Source: a virus (lineage: Duplodnaviria > Heunggongvirae > Uroviricota > Caudoviricetes). Taken from it: a stretch of 14,560 nt of DNA. Positions 1 through 14,560 of the stretch are shown piece after piece; within the stretch, counting starts at the first letter, position 1, and each line of letters begins with the position of its first letter. Position numbers and translations under genes: made by a program. The notes under the pieces were generated by a model, which saw nothing but the letters and a program-made list of their open reading frames with translations, was not told the origin of the DNA and made no database searches. The stretch lies in the IMG/VR virus record IMGVR_UViG_2681813225_000010, positions 1 to 14,560 of that record; one strand, given 5' to 3'.

Positions 1-24
1 AGTCTCCAGGATTCCCGGGGCGGT

Positions 25-3852
<3,828 letters not shown>

Positions 3853-4042
3853 GCTTACCTTCCCTGAACGAGCTAACATAAATGCGCCCTTTCTAGCACA
3901 GCGAAAAAATGTAAATCCTGATAGCAATATGATTGAAAATTAATAACTTTTCGTTAGGCAGTTTTGGGTGTGAGTTGCAAGAGGGGAGACTACTGAATAA
4001 CTCAAGTTTTATAATCGAGGGGAAAATGGTGATGGCGTTCAT

Positions 4043-4075
4043 AGCAAAACGCCCTCAACCATAAAGGTCGAGGGC
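4043..4075 (-). terminator. Rho-independent terminator downstream of tRNA-Asn
   Basis: On the minus strand a 7-bp GC-rich stem (CGCCCTC/GAGGGCG, 4050-4056 and 4069-4075) with a 12-nt loop is followed by TTTTGCT (complement of 4043-4049). Confidence 0.5.
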
Positions 4076-4165
4076 GCTTAAGATGTTAAAAACCCGCTAT
4101 CCGTTAAAAAACAATGTTCAACTAAGGTCAGTGACATTGCGCTAAAAAAGCGAATTTTTAGAATT

Positions 4166-4241
4166 TGGCTCCTCTGACTGGACTCGAACCAGTGACATAC
4201 GGATTAACAGTCCGCCGTTCTACCGACTGAACTACAGAGGA
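4166..4241 (-). tRNA. asnT: tRNA-Asn (anticodon GUU)
   Basis: The reverse complement reads UCCUCUGUAGUUCAGUCGGUAGAACGGCGGACUGUUAAUCCGUAUGUCACUGGUUCGAGUCCAGUCAGAGGAGCCA, a 76-nt cloverleaf with GUU anticodon and CCA end. The paralog name is from context (next to mtfA and yeeJ), since E. coli tRNA-Asn copies are identical. Confidence 0.93.
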
Positions 4242-4259
4242 ATCGTGTGAACGGGGCGC

Positions 4260-4288
4260 ATATTACTTAGCGGTACCTTGTCTGTCAA
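4260..4288 (-). promoter_or_regulatory. Putative sigma70 promoter of the tRNA-Asn gene
   Basis: Minus strand shows -35 TTGACA (complement of 4283-4288), a 17-bp spacer, -10 TAATAT (complement of 4260-4265), then a GC-rich discriminator (GCGCCCCG) about 11 nt before the mature tRNA 5' end, typical of stringently controlled tRNA promoters. Confidence 0.5.
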
Positions 4289-4341
4289 CACTAAATTTCA
4301 TAAGTCATTTCAATTGGTTAATTAATCTGCAAAGTTGTTAA

Positions 4342-5139
4342 TTAATGAACATTCGTCGCCGAAAACGAGTCTGTATCATTAGTGCGATGCAGTCTCTGCA
4401 AAGGATCTTGTTGATAAAATTGGCAGAAACGTTGCCACAATGAAGGGAAACGAGGAGCAAAAAGTTCTGGGGCGCTAAAGAAATATTCAGAAAGTACGGC
4501 AAAACATTCAGCAGGATCACTGGCAGCATAAGCATCAATGCTCGCCGCATTCTCGCCAACCAATTCGATTTCTTCCTGAATGTTGTTCATTGCAGCATGA
4601 AGATCGTGTTCCCAGCCAGCAACCTCACGCAACGGAATAAAGGGAACTCCGCTGGCGCGATCGCCGTTACGGGTGTCCAGCTTATGAGCGACTTCATGAA
4701 TAATCAGGTTAAAACCAGAAGCATCAAAAGAATCTTGTATATCCAACCAGTTCAAAACGATAGGCCCTTGCTGCCAGCTCTGACCTGACTGAACAATACG
4801 TTGGTTATGCACCAGACCGATATCGTCTTCCCATTCATCATCGACCACAAATGGCGCAGGATAAATTAAGACTTCATGAAAACCATCCAGCCATTCCAGT
4901 CCTAACTCCAGAACGGGTAGGCAAAATAGAAGTGCTATCCGGCAGCTTCTTAATGAATCCAGTTCAAAGCCCTGTAAAGGAACAAGCCGCTTTTGCTGTA
5001 AAAAACGTTCGGCAAGAGTGACTAATTTGCTTTGTTCCTGTTCCGTCAGACCCGTTAAAAGGGGGATCGATAGTGCTTCCTGCCAGGGAAGGGCAGTTTG
5101 ATGTGCTGATTCTTGTACTTTCCAGGGCCACTTAATCAT
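4342..5139 (-). CDS. mtfA: MtfA (Mlc titration factor A), zinc-dependent peptidase family, 265 aa
   Basis: ORF track 4342..5178(-). Start trimmed to the ATG giving [11 protein letters not shown] (complement 5137-5139). Contains the HEVAH zinc-binding motif ([10 protein letters not shown]). Sits between tRNA-Asn and serU as in E. coli. Confidence 0.9.
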
Positions 5140-5188
5140 CGTTTTGCTCGCAAACTCGTCACTTGAACAAAATTGCACGGACAGGGAC

Positions 5189-5197
5189 TGTTAAAAT
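5189..5197 (+). promoter_or_regulatory. Putative extended -10 element (TGtTAAAAT) of a serU promoter
   Basis: TGTTAAAAT at 5189-5197 lies about 35 nt upstream of the mature tRNA-Ser 5' end. No convincing -35 found. Confidence 0.3.
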
Positions 5198-5232
5198 GCC
5201 AAATTTCCTGGCATCATGGCAACCATCTGAAC

Positions 5233-5322
5233 GGAGAGATGCCGGAGCGGCTGAACGGACCGGTCTCGAAAACCGGAGTGGGGGCAACTCCACCGGGGGT
5301 TCAAATCCCCCTCTCTCCGCCA
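5233..5322 (+). tRNA. serU: tRNA-Ser (anticodon CGA), 90 nt including long variable arm and CCA
   Basis: GGAGAGAUGCCGGAGCGGCUGAACGGACCGGUCUCGAAAACCGG... with anticodon loop CUCGAAA (anticodon CGA), long variable arm, T-arm GGGGGUUCAAAUCCCCC, and CCA at 5320-5322. Prophage-type genes begin immediately 3'. Confidence 0.93.
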
Positions 5323-5367
5323 AAATTCAATCACTTATACATCATTAAGTCAGTGACAAAAATCACA

Positions 5368-5404
5368 CTTGGAATTACTTGGAATATTTTCTTGGAATAT
5401 TTTC
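5368..5404. repeat. Three direct CTTGGAAT repeats, the last two inside an exact 13-bp tandem repeat (TTGGAATATTTTC x2); candidate integrase arm-type binding sites in attL
   Basis: CTTGGAAT at 5368-5375, 5378-5385 and 5391-5398. TTGGAATATTTTC at 5379-5391 and 5392-5404. The first copy sits on the last integrase-fragment codons and the other two lie downstream of its stop, between that fragment and the tRNA 3' end. Confidence 0.3.
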
Positions 5405-5845
5405 AGGTAACGGGACATCAAGTGTCGGTGAAACTTTAACCTTCCTGTCATAGATTAGCACTTGCCCCTCGGTTTTGTGACCAGAGAAAAGTTGCTTATC
5501 CCGACTGCTTCCTTCATAGTCTGAAATTCCTTTCGCCTTCAGATCATGAAAGGTGAAGTCGGTTAAAATACCTGAAATTTTGCCTGCGCGATTTCTTGCT
5601 TCTACCCACATTTCGTTAAAGCCTTTGTACATATATCGGTTGCCGTATTGATTACTGATTACATAGGCGGATGTTGGTAACTGTTTTGCTTTTTCGATCG
5701 CCGCCTGTAATCGTGGACTCCATGCTTTTATCTGTTTTTTTCCTGTTTTCCCTTGCTGGATAAAGATTCCGTCGTTTCCAATCTGCTCCCATTTCAGCGA
5801 TAACACATCGGAAACCCTCGCTGCACACAGATAGGCAATTTCCAT
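5375..5845 (-). pseudogene. Tyrosine recombinase (phage integrase) C-terminal catalytic-domain fragment only (156 codons); N-terminal half absent
   Basis: The translation carries the C-terminal catalytic signature of lambda-family integrases (FTFHDLKAKG..., LFSGHKTEGQVLIYDRK with the presumed catalytic Tyr). It reads toward the tRNA 3' end. No upstream minus-strand ORF of 60 aa or more continues it (5846-6078), and full-length enzymes are roughly 330-400 aa. Confidence 0.75.
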
Positions 5846-6078
5846 TGCGATAAAAACAGGAAGAGGTGCAACGCTTAATACTGGTGTACGTCAGTTGCCT
5901 GCTGAGAGATGTCCTGCGATTGAACGAGCAACAAAAGGTGGTGTCCTGTGTGAAGAACTTCGTCCTGATGTTGATTGGACATACTTACGACGCTCGTCAT
6001 GTTATTCGCAGAATATGTCGATGAAGCAACCAAATGACGAAAACGATCATACCCGAAGCATCAAGAGGCAAATGATTC

Positions 6079-6504
6079 ATGAAAATCAAGCATGAACACA
6101 TCCGCATGGCGATGAATGCCTGGGCGCGTCCTGATGGCGAAAAAGTTCCAGCAGCTGGAATAACCCAGGCTTATTTTGAGTTGGGGATGACGTTTCCTGA
6201 ACTGTATGACGACAGCCATCCGGAAGCCCTGGCTCGCAATACCCAGAAAATTTTCCGCTGGGTAGAGAAAGACACCCCTGATGCAGTTGAAAAAATTCAG
6301 GCGTTGTTACCAGCGATCGAAAAGGCAATGCCACCTTTGCTGGTGGCCAGAATGCGCAGCCACAGTTCAGCTTATTTTCGGGAGCTGGTGGAGACGCGGG
6401 AGCGACTGGTGAGAGACGCTGATGATTTTGTCGCAGTGGCAATCGCCGGTTTCAATCAGATGAACCGTGGTGGCCCGGCAGGAAATGCTGTGGCAGTACA
6501 TTGA
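6079..6504 (+). CDS. YdaT-family prophage protein (141 aa)
   Basis: ORF track. N-terminus MKIKHEHI... is as I recall for YdaT-like proteins of Rac-type prophages. It sits immediately upstream of the O-like and DnaC-like genes (ydaT-ydaU-ydaV order). AAGAGG SD-like motif 11 nt upstream. Confidence 0.65.
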   Translation: MKIKHEHIRMAMNAWARPDGEKVPAAGITQAYFELGMTFPELYDDSHPEALARNTQKIFRWVEKDTPDAVEKIQALLPAIEKAMPPLLVARMRSHSSAYFRELVETRERLVRDADDFVAVAIAGFNQMNRGGPAGNAVAVH

Positions 6505-6575
6505 CTGACAATAGCCGTATCGAATCGCTTCCGGCAACTCGTGAGTAAAAAGATTCGGTATCAGAAGAGGTGAGT

Positions 6576-7658
6576 ATGGCTAACGCCTGGCTCAGATTAT
6601 GGCATGACATGCCAAATGACCCTAAGTGGCGAACAATTGCCAGGGTGTCAGGGCAGCCAATTGCAACAGTGATGGCAGTGTATATCCACCTCCTGGTGAG
6701 CGCGTCACGAAATGTCACGCGAGGTCACATTGATGTCACGACAGAAGATTTGGCAAGTGCGCTCGACGTGACAGAAGAGGTAATTGATTCAATTTTGCAG
6801 ACGATGCAGGGGCGGGTACTTGATGGTGATTTAATCACTGGATGGGAAAAACGCCAGGTGCTTAAAGAGGACAACGGCAATATTTCGCAAACCGCAAAAT
6901 CTCCTGCAGAGCGCAAGAGGGCGCAGCGAGAGAGGGAAAGAAAGCGGGAACAAAATGGCGATTGTCACGGCGCGTCACGAAATGTCACGCACATGTCACG
7001 ACGAGTCACGACAGATAAAGATACAGATAAAGATACAGATAAAGATACAGATCAAGAAGATCAAAACACTATGGTCCATGGCGTAAAAAACGCCACGAAC
7101 CAGGCAGGGGATGTTCAGACCGTCAATCCTGGTCAGCCAGCAGGCACGACACCGGAAGCCGATTCAGCGTATGCGCTGAAAGCCGATTCGGGCGCTGTGC
7201 AGCAGGTGATGACCGCAAGGCCGGAGCAATCACACCAACTGCAGCAGCCTGAAGCCGATTCCGCCATTCAGCGGGAAGCCGATCGGGTAGTCCCGGAAAA
7301 CACCGGGCAGCCTGTGGGACGAGTGGATTATCCGGATGTGTTCGAACAGGTCTGGCGGGAATACCCGTTGCGTGCTGGGGCAAACCCGAAGAAATCCGCT
7401 TTCAGTGCCTGGAAGGCCAGATTACGCGAGGGGGTGCCACCAGAGGCCATACTGGATGGTGTGAGGCGTTACGCAAGATACCTGGCGGCTACCGGGAAAA
7501 CGGGAACGGAATTTGTTCAGCGAGCGACGACGTTTTTTGGGCCGGACCGGAATTTTGAAAACCCCTGGTTGCTCCCGGTAAGCGGCACGAACAACCAGCG
7601 TTGTGTGAATCATATTTCTGAACCGGATACCGAAATTCCGCCGGGATTCAGGGGGTGA
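6576..7658 (+). CDS. Phage replication initiation protein (lambda O-like / YdaU-like) containing the replication origin
   Basis: ORF track 6570..7658. I favour the ATG at 6576 (MANAWLRLWHD...), which has AGAAGAGG upstream. The gene contains two iteron arrays and a tandem repeat (see repeat features), like lambda ori inside O. It directly precedes a DnaC-like loader gene. Confidence 0.8.
   Translation: MANAWLRLWHDMPNDPKWRTIARVSGQPIATVMAVYIHLLVSASRNVTRGHIDVTTEDLASALDVTEEVIDSILQTMQGRVLDGDLITGWEKRQVLKEDNGNISQTAKSPAERKRAQRERERKREQNGDCHGASRNVTHMSRRVTTDKDTDKDTDKDTDQEDQNTMVHGVKNATNQAGDVQTVNPGQPAGTTPEADSAYALKADSGAVQQVMTARPEQSHQLQQPEADSAIQREADRVVPENTGQPVGRVDYPDVFEQVWREYPLRAGANPKKSAFSAWKARLREGVPPEAILDGVRRYARYLAATGKTGTEFVQRATTFFGPDRNFENPWLLPVSGTNNQRCVNHISEPDTEIPPGFRG
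6701..6745. repeat. Iteron array 1: four GTCAC(G) repeats phased at 10-11 bp
   Basis: GTCAC at 6704, 6714, 6724 and 6735. The 20-mer CGCGTCACGAAATGTCACGC (6701-6720) recurs exactly at 6971-6990. Confidence 0.6.
6961..7052. repeat. Iteron array 2 (five GTCAC repeats) followed by an A+T-rich 12-bp tandem repeat (ACAGATAAAGAT x3.5); candidate ori core
   Basis: GTCAC at 6964, 6974, 6984, 6995 and 7005 (spacing 10, 10, 11, 10). Then ACAGATAAAGAT at 7011-7022, 7023-7034 and 7035-7046, plus a partial copy to 7052. In the protein this region reads DKDTDKDTDKDTD. Confidence 0.6.
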
Positions 7659-7664
7659 TGTGGC

Positions 7665-8411
7665 ATGAAAAACATTGCGGCAGCCGGGGTTCTTGAACGT
7701 ATTCGCAGACTTGCACCACAGGCGTCGGTTCCACCGTACCGGACGGTGGAGGAGTGGCGGGAATGGCAACTTGTTGAAGGACGAAAACGCAGCGAGGAGA
7801 TTAACCGCCAGAATCACCAGTTGCGGGTGGAAAAAATCCTGAATCGTTCGGGCATCCAGCCTCTGCACAGCAAATGCTCGTTTGCGAATTATCAGGTGCA
7901 GAACGACGGGCAAAAATACGCGCTGAGCCAGGCCAAATCCATAGCTGACGAACTGATGACCGGGTGCACGAATTTTGTGTTCAGCGGTAAAACCGGCACC
8001 GGGAAAAATCACCTTGCAGCGGCGATGGGTAACCGGCTGATGGCGAAGGGGCGCAGCGTGATTATCGTCACCGTGTCTGATGTCATGAGCGTGTTGCATG
8101 ACAGCTACGACAACGGCAAATCCGGGGAAAAATTTTTACAGGAGCTTTGCAGTGTTGATTTGCTGGTCCTGGATGAAATAGGCGTTCAGCGGGAGACGAA
8201 AAACGAGCAGGTGGTATTACACCAGATAATTGATCGCCGGACAGCATCACTGTGCAGTGTCGGGATGTTAACAAACCTGAATCATGCCGCAATGAGCACG
8301 CTTCTTGGTGAGAGGATTATGGACCGCATGACCATGAACGGTGGTCGGTGGGTGACGTTTAACTGGGATAGCTGGCGTCCAAATGTCAGCAATCAGAGGG
8401 TTGTGAAGTAA
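7665..8411 (+). CDS. DnaC-like replicative helicase loader (AAA+ ATPase, IstB/DnaC family; YdaV-like)
   Basis: Walker A FSGKTGTGKNHLAAAMG and Walker B LLVLDEIG. The ATG lies 6 nt after the O-like stop, with AGGGGGTGA upstream. Confidence 0.85.
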   Translation: MKNIAAAGVLERIRRLAPQASVPPYRTVEEWREWQLVEGRKRSEEINRQNHQLRVEKILNRSGIQPLHSKCSFANYQVQNDGQKYALSQAKSIADELMTGCTNFVFSGKTGTGKNHLAAAMGNRLMAKGRSVIIVTVSDVMSVLHDSYDNGKSGEKFLQELCSVDLLVLDEIGVQRETKNEQVVLHQIIDRRTASLCSVGMLTNLNHAAMSTLLGERIMDRMTMNGGRWVTFNWDSWRPNVSNQRVVK

Positions 8412-8432
8412 TTTTTGTTGGAGGACGTTTTA

Positions 8433-9149
8433 ATGGAAACTGTATTTGACGCACTGAAAGCACTGAAAAAAGCCTCTTCACAGGTAGTGGCATCGCGCCT
8501 TGGAATCAGCCGCGAAGATGCTGTCAACGAACTGTGGAAACTGAAGCGCCGTGGTGAAGCGGATAACAAGGGTTCGATGTGGTGGCTGATTCAGGCTGGT
8601 GAAAGTGAACCAGTGTCACCGGTACCGAAAGTGACAGCGCAAATGCTGACTGAGGCGATTGAACATCATGGCCCACAAACGGCGGATGAGCTGGCACTGA
8701 TGTTCGGGATTACCTCCCGCCGGGCGAATTCATCACTGGCCATGGCAATCAGCAAAGGGCGTCTGATTCGCGTGAATCAGGGCGGTAAATTTCGGTACTG
8801 CATACCGGGCGCTGATTTACCGGCTGAGCCGAAAGCCGCATCCATAGCGGAAACGGATGGTAAAGCCTTTCCTCAGCCAGCAGGTGTTGCGTTACCAGTC
8901 GGGGAAGCGGAAACACAGGAAGAAATAAAAACGGAAAGTGTGGCGGTCACAGTGCAGTCACAGCCGTCGTTCACCAGAAAGCATCCGGATGGTCTGATTT
9001 TACCATCGCTGCATGTGGCTAACCGCGAGCTGCGCCGGGCAAAAGGTCAGGTTCAGAAGTGGGAGCGAGTCTGCGCCGCGCTGCGGGAGCTGAACAAGTG
9101 CCGGGATATTCTCCGGGATATTACCGCCACCAGAGAACAGCAGCGGTGA
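8433..9149 (+). CDS. Prophage protein with two N-terminal winged-helix-like segments and a C-terminal coiled-coil-like tail; function unknown
   Basis: ORF track 8415..9149 begins at an alternative start codon. I prefer the ATG at 8433 (METVFDALK...), with GGAGGA 8 nt upstream. It follows the DnaC-like gene, as ydaW-type genes do. Confidence 0.65.
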
Positions 9150-9181
9150 GTGGGTGGAAGACGTGGTGCCGGGCGGAAATC

Positions 9182-9463
9182 ATGATACTCCGGCAGTGTG
9201 CGGGAACGATGAAGGTAAAAAGCGTTGGCGCACTTATCGGACGAACTGAAGCGGCAGTGAGAACGAAGGCACGGGAGCTGGGCATCAGCATGATGTTACG
9301 TGGTGATTTTCACCCGTCGGCAAAATATTCTCAGCGTGATATTGAGCTGGCGCGGCAACTGCATCAGAGAGGCATGCAAAGAAGGGAAATTGCCAGAAAA
9401 TTAGGCATGCCGCTGCGCATAGTGAATAACTACGTTTATTTCGACAGGAGGGTGTCTGCGTGA
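9182..9463 (+). CDS. Small basic protein with HTH-like segments; putative DNA-binding regulator
   Basis: In-frame ATG at 9182 (MILRQCAG...), with an alternative ATG at 9209 (MKVKS...). The C-terminal QRREIARKLGMPLRIVNNYV looks like a helix-turn-helix. ORF 9059..9463 in the track is an extension overlapping the upstream gene. Confidence 0.5.
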   Translation: MILRQCAGTMKVKSVGALIGRTEAAVRTKARELGISMMLRGDFHPSAKYSQRDIELARQLHQRGMQRREIARKLGMPLRIVNNYVYFDRRVSA

Positions 9464-9687
9464 AAATCCTGTATCAGGATTACGGCCCGGTGGGGCAGGT
9501 GGTTATCAGCAGTACTGTAATGGAGTTTCGGAAGCATAACCGTGTGGTGGATGCTGTGCTGTTAACCTGTCCGGGGATATCGGCGAGTCGTGCAGGTGTG
9601 TTTATTATGAAGACGAAATTATATGGCAGTAAGGCGTGGATAAAGAAGGCGTATCGTGTAGCGTTGCAGGAGGTTAACAGTGAGTGA
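9460..9687 (+). CDS. Hypothetical small basic phage protein (75 aa)
   Basis: GTG start overlaps the upstream stop (GTGA, 9460-9463). AGGAGGG lies 9 nt upstream. No recognisable motif. Confidence 0.45.
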   Translation: MKILYQDYGPVGQVVISSTVMEFRKHNRVVDAVLLTCPGISASRAGVFIMKTKLYGSKAWIKKAYRVALQEVNSE

Positions 9688-9991
9688 AATTAAAGAAATG
9701 CCGGTAGTTCGTGACGGATATGGCTACTGGACACATCCTGAATATGAAAAATTCTGTGATGGTCGGGAATATATTTCAACGGAAGAGTTTAACGCCTGGA
9801 TGGAGGAAAATAATCTTCAATACGTCCTCTGCTTCAGAGATGAAGGATGTGCTGACCTTGATGCGTGTGATGCTGATATTTCTGCATGGGAACCGGAACG
9901 ACCAGAGGGCGATGGCTGGTTTATTGGTTCCATTCATGATACGGAAGATGGCCCGGTTTGTGTCTGGTTGCGAAATAAGGCTGAAGCATAA
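9680..9991 (+). CDS. Hypothetical strongly acidic small protein (103 aa); possible DNA-mimic-type anti-restriction/anti-defence candidate
   Basis: GTG start at 9680 with AGGAGG 6 nt upstream; overlaps the previous gene by 8 nt. By my hand count about 25 of 103 residues are Asp/Glu and about 8 are Lys/Arg. Confidence 0.5.
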   Translation: MSEIKEMPVVRDGYGYWTHPEYEKFCDGREYISTEEFNAWMEENNLQYVLCFRDEGCADLDACDADISAWEPERPEGDGWFIGSIHDTEDGPVCVWLRNKAEA

Positions 9992-10337
9992 AGGCGATAA
10001 ACCAACTAACAACTAAATACTGAAGATTTAAATCAGAAACGATTTTTATTAAATCCTTAACCGGAGGGATTCCTGCACCCTCAGAACATCAGGAGGCCGC
10101 CCGAAAGGGCGGTAAGAAATGAAACATTATTTAGAAAAAATTACCCACGAAAGAGCAGAACAACAGAGTTTCTGTTTTTCATTCTGTTTATAGTGTTGAT
10201 GATACCGATATCCCCGCTATTACTGGTCTGGATAATTGGAAGGACATTTGAACCAGTTATTGAGCTATATACCGATGTGACATGGGAATCATTCAGCGCA
10301 CTGCACAATAAAATTAATCCGTATAAGGAAAACTGAT

Positions 10338-10895
10338 ATGAGCACTATTACCAGAGAACGCGCGGAGATTAAATCATACATCACAGGCTTCCTGAGCGAC
10401 TCGGCGCACGATAACAAGTCTTCAGACAGCCTGCTGGCTAATGTGTTTCGTATCGCGCTGGCATCACTGGAAGCAGAGCCGATAGCAATGGTAGTGCCTG
10501 ATGAAATGGATTTGCTTACCTGCCATCTCGACGGTGTAACTAAAACATATGCTGATGGCTGGAACGCCTGCCGCGTCGCCATGCTTCAGGCCGGAAACTT
10601 TCGGGAAAATAAGAATTCGTCAACCAACAATTTTCGGGAAATCTCGGAAACGTCAACCAGATCTCCGATAACTCTGGATGGCTGGATAAGCTGTACTGAG
10701 CGAATGCCTGAAAAGAGCCAGAACGTGCTTATTTCGATGAATATCGATAGCGAGGCTGGGCCATTAATATATTCCGCACGCTATCTCGGAGGCACGTTCC
10801 GGCGCGGAGGTATAGCAGTTAGTCCGGGTAATGATCTTAGGCAAGCAACCCACTGGATGTCGCTACCAGAACCGCCGCAGGAGGTGAATCAATGA
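10338..10895 (+). CDS. Phage protein with an N-terminal domain of unknown function and a C-terminal DUF551-like domain
   Basis: ORF track. The C-terminus (DGWISCTERMPE...THWMSLPEPP) matches the DUF551 signature as I recall it. No search was run. Confidence 0.65.
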   Translation: MSTITRERAEIKSYITGFLSDSAHDNKSSDSLLANVFRIALASLEAEPIAMVVPDEMDLLTCHLDGVTKTYADGWNACRVAMLQAGNFRENKNSSTNNFREISETSTRSPITLDGWISCTERMPEKSQNVLISMNIDSEAGPLIYSARYLGGTFRRGGIAVSPGNDLRQATHWMSLPEPPQEVNQ

Positions 10896-10975
10896 CCTGG
10901 CCTGAAGCATTCACAACGGTAGGAATTGCGATGGCGGTGGCGCTGGTGGTGTATTCGATTTGCCGCTGGGGATAA
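10892..10975 (+). CDS. 27-codon ORF for a hydrophobic (single predicted TM) peptide, translationally coupled to the upstream gene
   Basis: The ATG at 10892 overlaps the upstream stop (ATGA). A strong SD (AGGAGGTGA, 10880-10888) lies 3-4 nt upstream. Product MTWPEAFTTVGIAMAVALVVYSICRWG. Below the 60-aa cutoff of the ORF track. Confidence 0.4.
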   Translation: MTWPEAFTTVGIAMAVALVVYSICRWG

Positions 10976-10982
10976 AAACGGT

Positions 10983-11010
10983 TTGCGGGAAAAGGATAGT
11001 TAAGTAGAAT
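10983..11010 (+). promoter_or_regulatory. Putative promoter of the hok/mok mRNA
   Basis: -35 TTGCGG (10983-10988), 16-bp spacer, -10 TAGAAT (11005-11010). The predicted start near 11015-11017 coincides with the 5' element that pairs with the transcript 3' end. Confidence 0.4.
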
Positions 11011-11062
11011 TGCAGCGGGTGCTTGAGGCTATCTGCCTCGGGCATGAACACCAACGGCAGAT

Positions 11063-11137
11063 AGAGAAAAGCCCCAGTTAACATTACGCGTCCTGCAAGA
11101 CGCTTAACATTAATCTGAGGCTCAATCCATGCTGAAC
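11063..11137 (-). ncRNA. sok: Putative Sok-like antisense RNA overlapping the mok translation initiation region; ends approximate
   Basis: Minus-strand promoter-like elements: -35 TTGCCT (complement of 11167-11172), 17-bp spacer, -10 TAACCT (complement of 11144-11149). The predicted transcript would be antisense to the mok SD and start codon. A U-run (complement of 11061-11066) could mark the 3' end, but I found no clean terminator hairpin. Confidence 0.3.
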
Positions 11138-11341
11138 ACATGTAGGTTAGCCTCTTACGTGCCGAAAGGCAAGGAGAAGCAGGCTATGAAGCAGCAAAAG
11201 GCGATGTTAATCGCCCTGATCGTCATCTGTTTAACCGTCATAGTGACGGCACTGGTAACGAGGAAAGACCTCTGCGAGGTGCGAATCCGAACCGGTCAGA
11301 CGGAGGTCGCTGTCTTCGTAGACTACGAATCTGAGAAGTAA
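11129..11341 (+). CDS. mok: Mok (modulation of killing) reading frame, an in-frame N-terminal extension of hok
   Basis: ATG at 11129 with GAGG 8 nt upstream. The N-terminus MLNTCR... resembles chromosomal mokC as I recall it; the frame continues through hok. Confidence 0.55.
   Translation: MLNTCRLASYVPKGKEKQAMKQQKAMLIALIVICLTVIVTALVTRKDLCEVRIRTGQTEVAVFVDYESEK
11186..11341 (+). CDS. hok: Hok/Gef-family type I toxin (51 aa membrane peptide)
   Basis: MKQQKAMLIALIVICLTVIVTALVTRKDLCEVRIRTGQTEVAVFVDYESEK has a TM segment followed by the conserved TRK(D/S)LCE...REVAAF-like C-terminal region of Hok/Gef toxins. AAGGAG lies 9 nt upstream of the ATG. Confidence 0.85.
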   Translation: MKQQKAMLIALIVICLTVIVTALVTRKDLCEVRIRTGQTEVAVFVDYESEK

Positions 11342-11348
11342 GAGACCA

Positions 11349-11407
11349 GGCGGGGGAGTAATCTCCCGCCACCTCTGATGTGTCAGGCATCCTCAACGCA
11401 CCCGCGC
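11349..11407 (+). promoter_or_regulatory. hok mRNA 3' structure: GC-rich terminal stem-loop plus an fbi-like element complementary to the mRNA 5' end
   Basis: Stem-loop GGCGGGGG-AGUAAU-CUCCCGCC at 11349-11370. The 3' segment CCTCAACGCACCCGC (11391-11405) is complementary to GCGGGTGCTTGAGG (11015-11028), giving 8 bp + 6 bp with one bulge. Confidence 0.55.
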
Positions 11408-11460
11408 TTTACCATACTGAAAATGCTGTTTGAATGTTCATCTCTGAAAGAGGACTATGA

Positions 11461-11805
11461 ATGAAAAAGGTATTGATTGCAGCACTTATTTCCGGTGTGT
11501 CTTTTGGCGCTTTTGCACAGCAGGGTGGTTTCCAGGGGCCAGAAGCAGAGCGTTCAACAGTAGCGCAGGCAAAAGAACTGAAGGATGATGCATGGGTTAT
11601 CCTTGAAGGGAGCATCGTTAAAAAAGTGGGTGATGAACGTTATGAGTTTCGTGACAATAGCGGGACAATTGTCACGGATATTGATGACAGCGTATGGGCC
11701 GGGCAGAATGTTTCTCCGAAAGACAAAGTAAGAATTGAGGGTGAAATTGATAAAGACCTGAGCAGTGTTGAAGTTGATGTAAAGGCACTGAAATTATTAA
11801 AGTAA
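11461..11805 (+). CDS. YgiW/YdeI-family (BOF, bacterial OB-fold, DUF388) periplasmic protein with signal peptide
   Basis: Signal peptide MKKVLIAALISGVSFGAFAQQ and clear similarity to YgiW-type proteins (QGGFQGP..., TIVTDIDD..., VEVDVK). AAAGAGGA lies 6 nt upstream. Followed by its own terminator. Confidence 0.85.
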   Translation: MKKVLIAALISGVSFGAFAQQGGFQGPEAERSTVAQAKELKDDAWVILEGSIVKKVGDERYEFRDNSGTIVTDIDDSVWAGQNVSPKDKVRIEGEIDKDLSSVEVDVKALKLLK

Positions 11806-11821
11806 CCGCCCCTGCTTGTTA

Positions 11822-11848
11822 AGCCCGTCTTACTGACGGGTTTTCTGT
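11822..11848 (+). terminator. Rho-independent terminator after the BOF gene
   Basis: Stem CCCGTC/GACGGG (11824-11829 and 11835-11840) with a 5-nt loop, followed by TTTTCTGTTT. Confidence 0.6.
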
Positions 11849-11926
11849 TTGTACATTCCGGCGTATTGCCTTACAATTCGCGCAGTCAGCCTGAACAACT
11901 GACACCTGCTGTCACCGGAGAATCCG

Positions 11927-12199
11927 ATGACACAACACATAAAATCCCACAATTCTGAAGCCGACCCGGAAATTAAGCAGGGGAGGCGTTTTCGTGCGCC
12001 TCAGTATGGCTGGTTTCACTATCTGTTCTGTACGATCGATGAGGCAGATATGCTTCAAGAGGCGTATCTGCGTCGCGGTGTCCGTGTGGAGCTGAGTCTG
12101 AACGCTGATCGTCTGACCTGGACCGTTTCTGTATATCTTCCTGTTCGTGCACATTTGCCACGGACACATGCCTGCTACCGTCAGCGCGTCTGGAGGTAA
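11927..12199 (+). CDS. Hypothetical phage protein (90 aa), first gene of a coupled pair
   Basis: ATG at 11927 with GGAG 6 nt upstream. Its stop TAA (12197-12199) sits just upstream of the GTG start of the next gene. Confidence 0.5.
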   Translation: MTQHIKSHNSEADPEIKQGRRFRAPQYGWFHYLFCTIDEADMLQEAYLRRGVRVELSLNADRLTWTVSVYLPVRAHLPRTHACYRQRVWR

Positions 12200-12200
12200 T

Positions 12201-13250
12201 GTGCGGGTATTACTTCGACCTGTTCTGGTTCCGGAACTCGGGCTGGTGGTCCTTAAGCCCGGTCGTGAATCATTGCCAGTTTTTCATCGCGGCAGGGTGC
12301 TGGTGGAGCCGGAACCGAAAAACATGCGGGCGCTGCCATCTGGAGCGGTTCCTACTGTTCGCCAGCCGCTGGCGGAAGATAAATCACTGCTGCCATTTTT
12401 CAGCGATGAGCGGGTGATTCGTGCAGCTGGCGGCGCTGGTGCACTGTCTGACTGGTTATTACGTCACGTGAAATCCTGCCAGTGGCCACACGGCGATTAT
12501 CATCACAGCGAAACCGTTATTCACAGTTACGGTGCTGGCGCAATGGTGTTGTGCTGGCACTGCGACAACCAGCTGCGCGACCAGACCTCCGAATCACTTG
12601 AGCAACTTACTCAACAAAATCTGACAGCCTGGATGATTGACGTCATACGCCATGTAATGAATGGCACGCAGGAGCGGGAATTATCGCTGGCTGAATTATC
12701 CTGGTGGGCAGTCTGCAATCAGGTGGTGGACGCATTACCTGAGGCAGTATCGCGTCGCTCTCTGGGATTACCGGCGGAAAAAATCCGCTCCGTATACCGT
12801 GAAAGCGACATCATACCGGGAGAACAGACCGCCACCAGCATACTGAAGCAGCGCACAAAAAATATTGCGCTACCGCCTCACACCCACCAGCAACAGAACC
12901 CACCACAGGAAAAGACGGTGGTCAGCATTGCCGTTGATCCGGAGTCTCCGGAATCCTTCATGAAACGACCTAAACGTCGCCGCTGGGTAAATGAGAAATA
13001 CACACGCTGGGTAAAGACACAGCCGTGTGCGTGTTGTGGTAAGCCAGCGGACGATCCTCATCATCTGATTGGTCATGGTCAGGGCGGAATGGGAACAAAA
13101 TCCCACGATATTTTCACGCTACCGCTGTGTCGGGAGCATCACAACGAGCTTCATGCGGATCCGCTGGCGTTCGAAGAAAAGCATGGTTCCCAGGTTGATT
13201 TAATTTTTCGTTTTCTTGATCACGCCTTTGCAACCGGCGTGCTCGGGTAA
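12201..13250 (+). CDS. DUF968-like phage protein with a C-terminal zinc-finger/HNH-like motif (nin-region protein)
   Basis: ORF track gives 12147..13250. I favour the GTG at 12201, 4 nt after a GGAGG motif and just past the upstream stop. C-terminus: CACCGKPADDPHHLIGHG...LCREHHNELH (Cys pairs and HH pairs as in HNH-type folds). Immediately precedes rusA. Confidence 0.65.
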   Translation: MRVLLRPVLVPELGLVVLKPGRESLPVFHRGRVLVEPEPKNMRALPSGAVPTVRQPLAEDKSLLPFFSDERVIRAAGGAGALSDWLLRHVKSCQWPHGDYHHSETVIHSYGAGAMVLCWHCDNQLRDQTSESLEQLTQQNLTAWMIDVIRHVMNGTQERELSLAELSWWAVCNQVVDALPEAVSRRSLGLPAEKIRSVYRESDIIPGEQTATSILKQRTKNIALPPHTHQQQNPPQEKTVVSIAVDPESPESFMKRPKRRRWVNEKYTRWVKTQPCACCGKPADDPHHLIGHGQGGMGTKSHDIFTLPLCREHHNELHADPLAFEEKHGSQVDLIFRFLDHAFATGVLG

Positions 13251-13262
13251 AAGAGGTTACTG

Positions 13263-13622
13263 ATGCGTATAGAGTTTGTTTTGCCTTACCCGCCGACGGT
13301 GAACACCTACTGGCGACGTCGTGGCAGCACATATTTTGTATCAAAAGCCGGTGAGCGTTATCGCCGGGATGTGGCACTTATTGTTCGCCAGCAGCGGCTG
13401 AAATTAAACCTGTCCGGAAGGCTGGCGATAAAGATTATTGCAGAGCCACCGGATAAGCGCCGTCGTGACCTGGACAATATCCTGAAAGCACCACTGGATG
13501 CGCTGACGCATGCCGGACTTCTCATAGACGACGAGCAGTTTGATGAAATCAATATTGTGCGCGGCCAGCTCGTTTCTGGTGGGCGGCTGGGCGTGAAGAT
13601 TTACAAAATTGAAAGTGAGTGA
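13263..13622 (+). CDS. rusA: RusA Holliday-junction resolvase (crossover junction endodeoxyribonuclease)
   Basis: Similarity to RusA as I recall it: PDRRRRDLDNLQKA in the reference versus PDKRRRDLDNILKA here, plus a GGRL motif near the C-terminus. AAAGAGG lies 5 nt upstream of the ATG. Confidence 0.9.
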   Translation: MRIEFVLPYPPTVNTYWRRRGSTYFVSKAGERYRRDVALIVRQQRLKLNLSGRLAIKIIAEPPDKRRRDLDNILKAPLDALTHAGLLIDDEQFDEINIVRGQLVSGGRLGVKIYKIESE

Positions 13623-13630
13623 GCATAAAT

Positions 13631-14185
13631 ATGATATACTCGGAAATTACAGGCAAAAGCGGTGAGCATTTACGCCTGAAAACGCTGGAAAGTGTCTGGA
13701 TCCAGGGGAAACTGCGTATGTGGGGGCGTTGGTCGTATATTGGCGACGGTAAGACGGGAAATATGTTCAACCAATTACTGACCTCTAAAAAGCTGACAAA
13801 AACGGCAATTAACGAGGCGCTCCGGAGGATGAAAAAAGCGGGTCTGGACAAACCTGAACTTGAGGCTTTTTTGTGGGATATGATCAACGGCAATCAAAAA
13901 AGCTGGCTGGCACATTGTACCGATTCAGAGGCGTTAATAATCGACAGGGTTATTGGTGAAGTACTGGCAGGTTATCCCGGGCTGCTCAATGTTCTGAGTC
14001 AGCGTTATGTGGGGCGGGGGATGACTAAGCGCAAAATGGCTGAACTGCTGAATGATGCACATCCGGAATGGAGTTTAAGAACCTGTGAAAGACGCATTGA
14101 GCATTGGCTAAAGGTGGCAGAATTTATTTTGTACAAACCAATGGTTATGGCTTTTGGTATAGATAAAAAAGTTATTGCTTTTTGA
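13631..14185 (+). CDS. Putative late-gene antiterminator Q-like protein (phage 82 / QuuD-type family)
   Basis: Position after rusA and immediately before a promoter-like region and a strong terminator (the PR'-tR' arrangement). Weak motif resemblance to QuuD-type proteins from memory (W-G-x-W, LLTSK, YVGRGMT). The start is ambiguous: the GTG at 13619 overlaps the rusA stop, the ATG at 13631 is in frame. Confidence 0.55.
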   Translation: MIYSEITGKSGEHLRLKTLESVWIQGKLRMWGRWSYIGDGKTGNMFNQLLTSKKLTKTAINEALRRMKKAGLDKPELEAFLWDMINGNQKSWLAHCTDSEALIIDRVIGEVLAGYPGLLNVLSQRYVGRGMTKRKMAELLNDAHPEWSLRTCERRIEHWLKVAEFILYKPMVMAFGIDKKVIAF

Positions 14186-14263
14186 CGTAAAAACTGCTTC
14201 AATTCCGGTACGCTTCGCAAAGCTGTACCGCGAGGCGAATAGCAGACATGGACATTTGAAAGA

Positions 14264-14288
14264 GCCCGCTTTTTGCGGGTTTTTTTAT
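14264..14288 (+). terminator. Strong Rho-independent terminator (tR'-like) downstream of the Q-like gene
   Basis: Stem GCCCGC/GCGGGT (14264-14269 and 14275-14280) with a TTTTT loop, followed by a 6-7 T run (14280-14286). Confidence 0.65.
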
Positions 14289-14409
14289 GACTGAAAAACG
14301 GCACGGGGCGTTAAATGCGCTGGTGGTTGCGAATACCGGTCTTTCTGCTTGCTGGCTTTTTGGACAAGAGTTATTGGTGTGTCACGTTAACCGGAAAGGG
14401 TAAAAAGAC

Positions 14410-14560
14410 ATGCTGAAACAGCAGGATATGACAGAAACCGCCAGAGTTGTGTTTGATGAATTAAGTGCCACCGAACCGGCGACAGTCGGGGAGATTGCAC
14501 AGAATACGTACCTTTCACGCGAACGCTGCCAGCTAATACTGACCCAGCTTGTTATGGCGG
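14410..14560 (+). CDS. 5' part of an ORF running off the window end; product has a winged-helix-like segment
   Basis: ATG at 14410 with a GGAAAGGG purine tract about 9 nt upstream. Translation MLKQQDMTETARVVFDELSATEPATVGEIAQNTYLSRERCQLILTQLVMA... is open to the window edge. Confidence 0.3.
   Translation, partial: MLKQQDMTETARVVFDELSATEPATVGEIAQNTYLSRERCQLILTQLVMA

Follow-up and report, generated by a model that had tools for sequence, protein, structure and literature searches.

A phrog_1212 gene and a DUF968 gene form a conserved, positionally coupled pair ahead of rusA in a lambdoid prophage

In a window of 14,560 nucleotides (nt), comprising positions 1 to 14,560 of the Caudoviricetes record IMGVR_UViG_2681813225_000010 in the IMG/VR database, a small gene of 90 codons (11927 to 12199, plus strand) is followed by a DUF968/YdfU-family gene encoding 349 amino acids (aa; 12201 to 13250, plus strand) and then by a gene for a RusA-family Holliday-junction resolvase. 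The first two open reading frames (ORFs) are separate, conserved genes that are tightly coupled in position. The small gene is a long form of the phage family phrog_1212, members of which lie directly before DNA-branch nuclease genes and carry the ribosome-binding site of those genes in their own last two codons, an arrangement that makes translational coupling testable. Taken as a whole, the interval is likely to be an ordinary lambdoid nin-type module in which a generic small gene and a putative DUF968 nuclease gene are coupled in translation.

The small gene begins at an ATG at 11927, 6 nt behind a Shine-Dalgarno-like GGAG (11917 to 11920, plus strand, read from the sequence), and ends with TAA at 12197 to 12199. 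A single base (12200) separates this stop from the DUF968 GTG at 12201, so that the junction (12192 to 12203, plus strand) reads TGG AGG TAA T GTG. The Shine-Dalgarno sequence of the DUF968 gene, GGAGG at 12192 to 12196, lies 4 nt upstream of the GTG and falls within codons 89 and 90 of the small gene (TGG AGG, encoding W-R). Both the 1-nt spacing and the position of GGAGG had been described exactly in an earlier note on this DNA, which had also placed the RusA gene next in line, as it is.

When the 80 best IMG/VR loci with DUF968 at at least 89% identity were fetched, a small-family ORF stopped exactly 1 nt ahead of the GTG in every one, with the junction TGGAG(G/A)TAA(C/T)GTG, and RusA came next in 78. 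Among the 49 different small proteins found at these loci, 47 are intact, 89 to 92 aa long, and start with ATG, and 2 have no in-frame ATG. The same junction also occurs in the Qin prophage of Escherichia coli K-12, where the small protein is only 33% identical to that of the window. The arrangement of the two genes is not due to chance. DUF968 database clusters with thousands of members have lengths of 348 to 352 aa. Upstream of GTG 12201 the window DUF968 frame stays open for 18 codons, as far as a GTG at 12147, but the DUF968 homologues of Klebsiella, Pantoea, Vibrio, and P1, none of which is preceded by a small gene, start with MR(V/A)LL at the position matching GTG 12201. Judged from these homologous starts, GTG 12201 is confirmed as the start codon and the extension to 12147 does not code for DUF968.

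The 90-codon ORF is itself a genuine gene, because it matches a phage family, its core is under constraint, it has a confidently predicted fold, and the antisense ORF lying over it (11912 to 12169) is not conserved. Residues 26 to 90 align with positions 2 to 66 of the 66-position phrog_1212 profile (E value of 2.5e-33), and the Prokaryotic Genome Annotation Pipeline (PGAP) calls the gene as a hypothetical protein (WP_062882007.1). AlphaFold2 (AF2) predicts a beta-alpha-beta-beta core for residues 27 to 72 with a predicted local distance difference test score (pLDDT) of ~95; the N-terminal ~25 residues are variable and are disordered in the model (pLDDT below 50). The ratio of nonsynonymous to synonymous substitution rates (dN/dS; Nei-Gojobori, distinct long-form genes) follows the same division, with values of 0.11 to 0.18 in the 64-codon core and 0.38 to 0.52 in the N-terminal ~25 codons. 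Codon 57 of the window gene (12095 to 12097) encodes Leu, in VELSLNA, where Arg is found in the database cluster representative and Arg or Lys in 20 of 22 family members; Leu57 could be a slightly deleterious substitution in a prophage undergoing decay.

This family is narrow, with 28 representatives at 50% clustering among 1.84 billion proteins, and the phage relatives of the small protein found by tblastn were all from enterobacterial phages, with sequences mostly of 66 to 68 aa. The window protein had no match in Pfam, NCBIfam, PADLOC, or PDB, and no Pfam family was matched across 22 family members. Comparison with NinD, NinE, NinF, NinH, YlcG, YlcH, and Rem gave hmmsearch E values of at least 0.35 and hhalign probabilities of at most 0.2%. 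Identity with Rem or NinE was rejected, as there is no such similarity and rem is a separate gene upstream in Qin.

Short forms of 66 to 68 aa, found by single-protein scans at 163 IMG/VR loci, place the family in a wider setting. The gene directly 3′ of the short form encoded RusA at 77 loci, NinG/Rap at 59, and YbcO (DUF1364) at 24, with another gene or none at the remaining 3, and the upstream gene belonged to the DUF1367/Orf family at 155. In all but 3 of the 163 loci (160), the short form ends in TGG GGG/GGT and a stop, and an ATG or GTG comes after a further 2 nt. Since this junction precedes RusA, NinG, and YbcO alike, a putative Shine-Dalgarno sequence in the last two codons is a trait of the family, whichever gene comes next. 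Annotated examples of the short form include Gifsy-2 (small gene-NinG), mEp237 and phiES15 (small gene-YbcO-RusA-Q), and an Erwinia phage in which the small gene precedes a Dcm methylase gene. At one further locus (L103, 2704 to 3120), the usual nuclease is replaced by a 139-aa Cys-rich protein beginning MAKSAKCLFCGKPATLLCDG, which belongs to no Pfam family.

The reverse association is also incomplete. In the phage collection, full-length DUF968 was present in 173 records and a full-length long-form small gene in only 22. The linkage seen at all 80 loci with closely related DUF968 lies within the YdfU lineage. Most DUF968 lineages lack the small gene, and none was present upstream of DUF968 genes at 58% identity or less to the query. 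The gene in that position encodes KilA-N in an Stx2k phage, RusA in Pantoea AH07, a deoxyribosyltransferase in Vibrio Cla, and, upstream of the DUF968 homologue PdcB of P1, PdcA, which is unrelated to the small family. In Klebsiella phage 1 LV-2017 (KY271401.1; L251, 1357 to 1734), it is an unannotated RusA-like ORF of 125 aa beginning MKLTLPFPPSVNSYWRAP, between a Dam methylase gene and DUF968. The window DUF968 protein is 85% identical to K-12 YdfU, against the 33% of their small proteins, and the window small-protein core is 52 to 54% identical to some short forms. The core is thus nearer to those short forms than to the K-12 long form, indicating that small-gene alleles have been exchanged independently of DUF968.

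Probably, then, the small protein is a positional fixture directly upstream of whichever branch nuclease occupies the slot, be it RusA, NinG/Rap, YbcO, or DUF968. This bears on a second possibility, in which the 90-aa protein would serve DUF968 in particular, as a regulatory subunit or immunity-like inhibitor, and its N-terminal extension would be an adaptation to that partner. The unbroken linkage and fixed 1-nt junction within the YdfU lineage favor such a role, as does the length of the DUF968-linked forms, all 89 to 92 aa and thus with ~25 extra N-terminal residues compared to the 66 to 68 aa of those beside other nucleases; coupling would also favor co-synthesis. However, because the same core family precedes RusA, NinG/Rap, and YbcO, three other and partly unrelated nuclease families, it does not serve DUF968 as a dedicated subunit or inhibitor, and the more distant DUF968 lineages do without it. 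Each family occurs without the other, in place of the specific co-occurrence by which a nuclease and a cognate immunity protein or inhibitor would be recognized, and PADLOC returned only a chance-level match for DUF968. The extension itself is predicted to be disordered and is weakly constrained, and alleles of the small gene and of DUF968 have been reassorted. An intergenic region directly precedes the small gene in long-form loci, while short forms are coupled to an Orf-family gene, and the lack of this upstream coupling can explain the different 5′ end of the long forms more simply. A dedicated partnership is therefore improbable. The earlier note had proposed two candidate nucleases in tandem with a small partner; the adjacency of DUF968 and RusA holds, but it was already published (PMC5714182), and the small protein is not a DUF968-specific partner.

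What remains of interest is the constant placement of phrog_1212 ahead of four different branch-nuclease genes. We consider it unlikely, though worth stating, that phrog_1212 is a nuclease-agnostic factor accompanying the nuclease in the slot before Q, with a specificity for binding junctions or single-stranded DNA or with an anti-toxicity role, and with a gene that meters nuclease translation via the embedded Shine-Dalgarno sequence. If so, the long N-terminal tail of the DUF968-linked forms would be a partner-specific adaptation. Under the more probable account, in which the small protein is generic, phrog_1212 is still a possible accessory of phage recombination.

Assignment of the 349-codon gene to DUF968, and the HNH-like Cys/His motif claimed for its C terminus, were borne out by profile searches. 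The protein matched the whole Pfam DUF968 model (PF06147) over residues 160 to 346 (E value of 2.2e-77; 259.4 bits against a cutoff of 27.8), as well as phrog_96 (5e-174), and corresponds to PGAP protein WP_001265233.1. Its C-terminal motif (13026 to 13154, plus strand), delineated by conservation and profile matches, contains C276-x2-C279, H287-H288, H292, H302-D303, C310-x2-H313-H314-N315, and H318. Five of these residues (C276, H287, H292, H302, and D303) do not vary between E. coli and the distant Vibrio and P1 homologues, with H287 invariant in 7 homologues, and the full set is kept in enterobacterial lineages. The residues needed for metal binding are present. A candidate catalytic His is provided by the H287-H288 pair, in which H287 aligns with a conserved His of YbcO, and candidate metal ligands by the invariant D303 and by H314, N315, and H318, which the window protein shares with the E. 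coli, Klebsiella, and Pantoea homologues and which are partly kept in Vibrio and replaced in P1 PdcB. The predicted zinc site consists of C276, C279, C310, and H313, the three Cys residues being invariant in 25 close homologues.

A published classification of the His-Me finger superfamily unites DUF968 and DUF1364/YbcO (PDB 3g27) in its group 7 and gives RusA and Q as their typical neighbors (PMC5714182), and YbcO has been related to Ref and HNHc_6 (PMC4999995). Our comparisons agree with these placements. The CCCH/CCCC His-Me nucleases YbcO, P1 Ref, and HNHc_6 share with the window protein the CxxC, the first-strand HH, the D, the CxxH-H, and the distal H, with profile matches that are weak to moderate. 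The motif aligned with the YbcO family by hhalign (E value of 2.1e-5; probability, 77%), HNHc_6 was matched by 5 of 7 DUF968 homologues (best E value, 1.3e-6), and the Ref-type RecA_dep_nuc family was matched weakly by 2 of the 7. The C-terminal ~85 residues of DUF968 are therefore probably a zinc-stabilized (CCCH) His-Me finger of the YbcO/HNHc_6/Ref-like group. In contrast to those nucleases, the window protein has no significant sequence match to any solved chain; PDB profile searches returned only 3g27, at an E value of 0.55.

The N-terminal half holds a second conserved Cys/His-rich stretch (C93-Q94...C118-W-H120-C121-D122-N123; 12477 to 12569, plus strand), in which C93, Q94, C118, D122, and N123, along with R126, are invariant across the E. 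coli, Klebsiella, Pantoea, Vibrio, and P1 homologues, giving the pattern C93-Q...C118-x-(H)-(C/H)-D-N...R126. For residues 93 to 123 (C93-QWPH...LC118-WH-C121-DN), AF2 hints at a beta-hairpin and a helix, with low confidence. Gram-positive DUF968 proteins, which belong to the same Pfam family and have the same C-terminal zinc-finger HNH motif, have been described as an Orf-like domain joined to HNH (Curtis et al. 2014, PMC4118853). Unlike them, the window protein has no detectable Orf/NinB/DUF1367 similarity: residues 1 to 160 had no Pfam match even at E values up to 1, and hhalign of the N-terminal part against Orf/NinB/DUF1367/YbcN gave a probability of 0.3%, with both alignments shallow. 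An Orf-like N-terminal domain in this protein thus found no support in these shallow alignments.

Several results weigh against reading the pair as a coupled accessory and nuclease. On the window protein itself, HNHc_6 scored an E value of 1.4e-4, below the Pfam cutoff. The AF2 model has a mean pLDDT of 48.6 and is poor outside the C terminus, where residues ~265 to 349 reach 61 to 92 and form short strands followed by a helix at 311 to 319; because the underlying alignment contained close homologues only, the model was poor and the fold search uninformative, with HNH domains as the top Foldseek matches at nonsignificant E values of 0.8 to 2.4. The Vibrio and P1 homologues lack part of the zinc and metal ligands, and some members of the family may therefore have no nuclease activity. 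A literature search found no experimental or biochemical report on YdfU/DUF968 or phrog_1212. The proposed reinitiation of translation is read from junction geometry only, the constant placement of the small gene ahead of a nuclease could mean more than synteny, and the prophage is degraded, so its genes may not be expressed.

Some of these points would also suit a protein that is not a nuclease but a zinc-finger regulator binding DNA or RNA and working with the adjacent Q antiterminator. DUF968 lies directly upstream of Q or one gene off in every lambdoid context seen, some phage records name the DUF968 protein "antitermination protein Q," and a natural DUF968-Q fusion protein occurs on several contigs (P0050 and P0051, 607 aa). 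Partial loss of the Cys/His set in the Vibrio and P1 homologues fits this reading, and cleavage by DUF968 is a prediction. However, the enterobacterial proteins retain the full HH...D...H-x3-H and CCCH pattern, the profile relationships are to YbcO, to HNHc_6, and weakly to the Ref nuclease family, and the published superfamily placement points the same way. RusA is linked to DUF968 on either side, and the Q labels are probably annotation carry-over. A regulatory role is therefore of low probability. Another rare database fusion joins DUF968 to RusA (P0019, 447 aa, a singleton).

The earlier note had also read the ORF track as leaving open a single frameshifted gene. A sequencing error that divides such a gene, or a programmed +1 frameshift that joins its halves in vivo, is hardly credible and is rejected: in its favor are the 18 open codons upstream of the GTG and one 438-aa database protein (P0049), the sole small-DUF968 fusion and a singleton accounted for by a 13-nt deletion across the junction, and against it stand the stop-1 nt-GTG layout across very different sequences, the uniform length of the DUF968 clusters, the shared start residue of homologues without a small gene, and the free-standing 66-aa family members found elsewhere. 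Homologues do not form one continuous ORF, and the concern over a frameshift is removed.

Under the favored account of a nin-type module, transcription of the early operon would read through a hairpin ahead of the small gene, and ribosomes finishing the small ORF would most likely reinitiate at the weak GTG 1 nt on, so that DUF968 output would follow translation of the small gene. The small protein would most likely serve the recombination module as a generic accessory, and its translation would also bring ribosomes to the nuclease gene. DUF968, as predicted from its motif, could be a metal-dependent DNA nuclease or a DNA-binding module that works together with RusA on intermediates of recombination or replication, and RusA would resolve Holliday junctions before late gene expression.

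The hairpin in question (11821 to 11843), part of a terminator-like element with a T-run (11821 to 11853, plus strand) between a BOF/YgiW-family gene and the small gene, has a 9-pair stem including 5 G-C pairs and is followed by TCTGTTTGT. It may be a nin-type terminator, although such sites are a consensus match only, with 5 found compared to 3.8 expected in shuffled sequences. On the plus strand, the order of features is hok/sok, the BOF/YgiW-family gene, the hairpin, the 90-codon ORF, DUF968, RusA, and a Q-like DUF1133 gene. The RusA gene (13263 to 13622, plus strand; 119 aa) starts 12 nt past the DUF968 stop, with AAGAGG at 13251 to 13256, and was identified by Pfam RusA (PF05866; E value of 5e-16; 59.9 bits against a cutoff of 22.8), phrog_34 (1e-55), and PGAP; by eye, its acidic residues lie in ...RRRDLDN...IDDEQF.... 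The Q-like late antiterminator gene (13631 to 14185, plus strand) matched Pfam DUF1133 (1e-102) and Phage_antitermQ (1.5e-7) and phrog_753. PGAP starts it at 13631, and its frame is open from a GTG at 13619 that overlaps the RusA stop.

The layout parallels, in long form, NinE-YbcO-RusA-YlcG-Q in DLP12 and small gene-YbcO-RusA-YlcG-Q in mEp237. The DLP12/phage 82-type cluster ybcN-ninE-ybcO-rusA-ylcG-quuD and mEp237 gp50 to gp55 likewise combine a small gene, a group 7 His-Me finger gene, RusA, and Q, and the small genes of mEp237 and phiES15, like that of the window, belong to phrog_1212. YbcO has an HNH motif related to that of DUF968 (hhalign; PMC5714182), but it is a protein of 96 aa confined to the nuclease motif, to which DUF968 adds ~260 residues at the N terminus. 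In addition, NinE of DLP12 and lambda is unrelated to the window small protein, and the window lacks the upstream Orf-family gene. PdcB of P1 (L254, 1705 to 2748) is a full-length DUF968 homologue (26% identity over 91%) in another context: it lies downstream of phd-doc and upstream of lpa, and the 66-aa PdcA before it bears no relation to the small protein. PdcB also lacks the HH-x3-H set, its motif being of the YbcO type (CxxC...CxxC). Most E. coli genomes contain the nin-type module as a standard component of their lambdoid prophages, so it holds little new biology. That DUF968 is a His-Me finger protein neighboring RusA and Q was already published (PMC5714182).

The 1.9-kb interval from 11800 to 13700 is 100% identical to several Shiga-toxin-type E. 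coli chromosomes, including that of E. coli 2014C-3011, in which PGAP calls the identical five genes. The record of that strain has a degraded lambdoid prophage beside tRNA-Ser, with a truncated and frameshifted integrase. Probably, then, the E. coli chromosome is of the Shiga-toxin type, and the interval is the nin-type end, distal to the promoter, of the early-right operon of this degraded lambdoid prophage. In the window, tRNA-Asn (4166 to 4241, minus strand) and tRNA-Ser(cga) (5233 to 5322, plus strand) flank mtfA, and directly past tRNA-Ser the prophage starts with an ORF (5375 to 5845, minus strand) whose counterpart in the matching record is annotated as a truncated, frameshifted integrase. 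The neighboring yeeJ is annotated as partial in that record. Inside the prophage, a complete hok/sok toxin-antitoxin locus (11017 to 11341, plus strand) comprises sok (Rfam match of 113.5 bits, 11017 to 11191) and a Hok/Gef ORF (Pfam, 1e-22; PGAP start about 11186). The gene between hok and the small gene, of the BOF/YgiW/YdeI family of OB-fold "stress tolerance" proteins (11461 to 11805, plus strand), is prophage cargo.

In the Qin prophage, ydfU (b1560) encodes a protein of 349 aa with Q downstream and, as in the window, has a GGAGGTAA-n-GTG junction behind an upstream ORF of ~90 aa; it differs in having no RusA between ydfU and Q. In K-12 MG1655 this ORF, which immediately precedes ydfU (NC_000913.3, complement(1644306..1644584); L002, 2306 to 2585, minus strand), is intact, has 92 codons, and is orthologous to the small gene, with the same GGAGGTAAcGTG junction. 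No coding sequence is annotated for it in NC_000913.3, where "rem" is a different gene further upstream.

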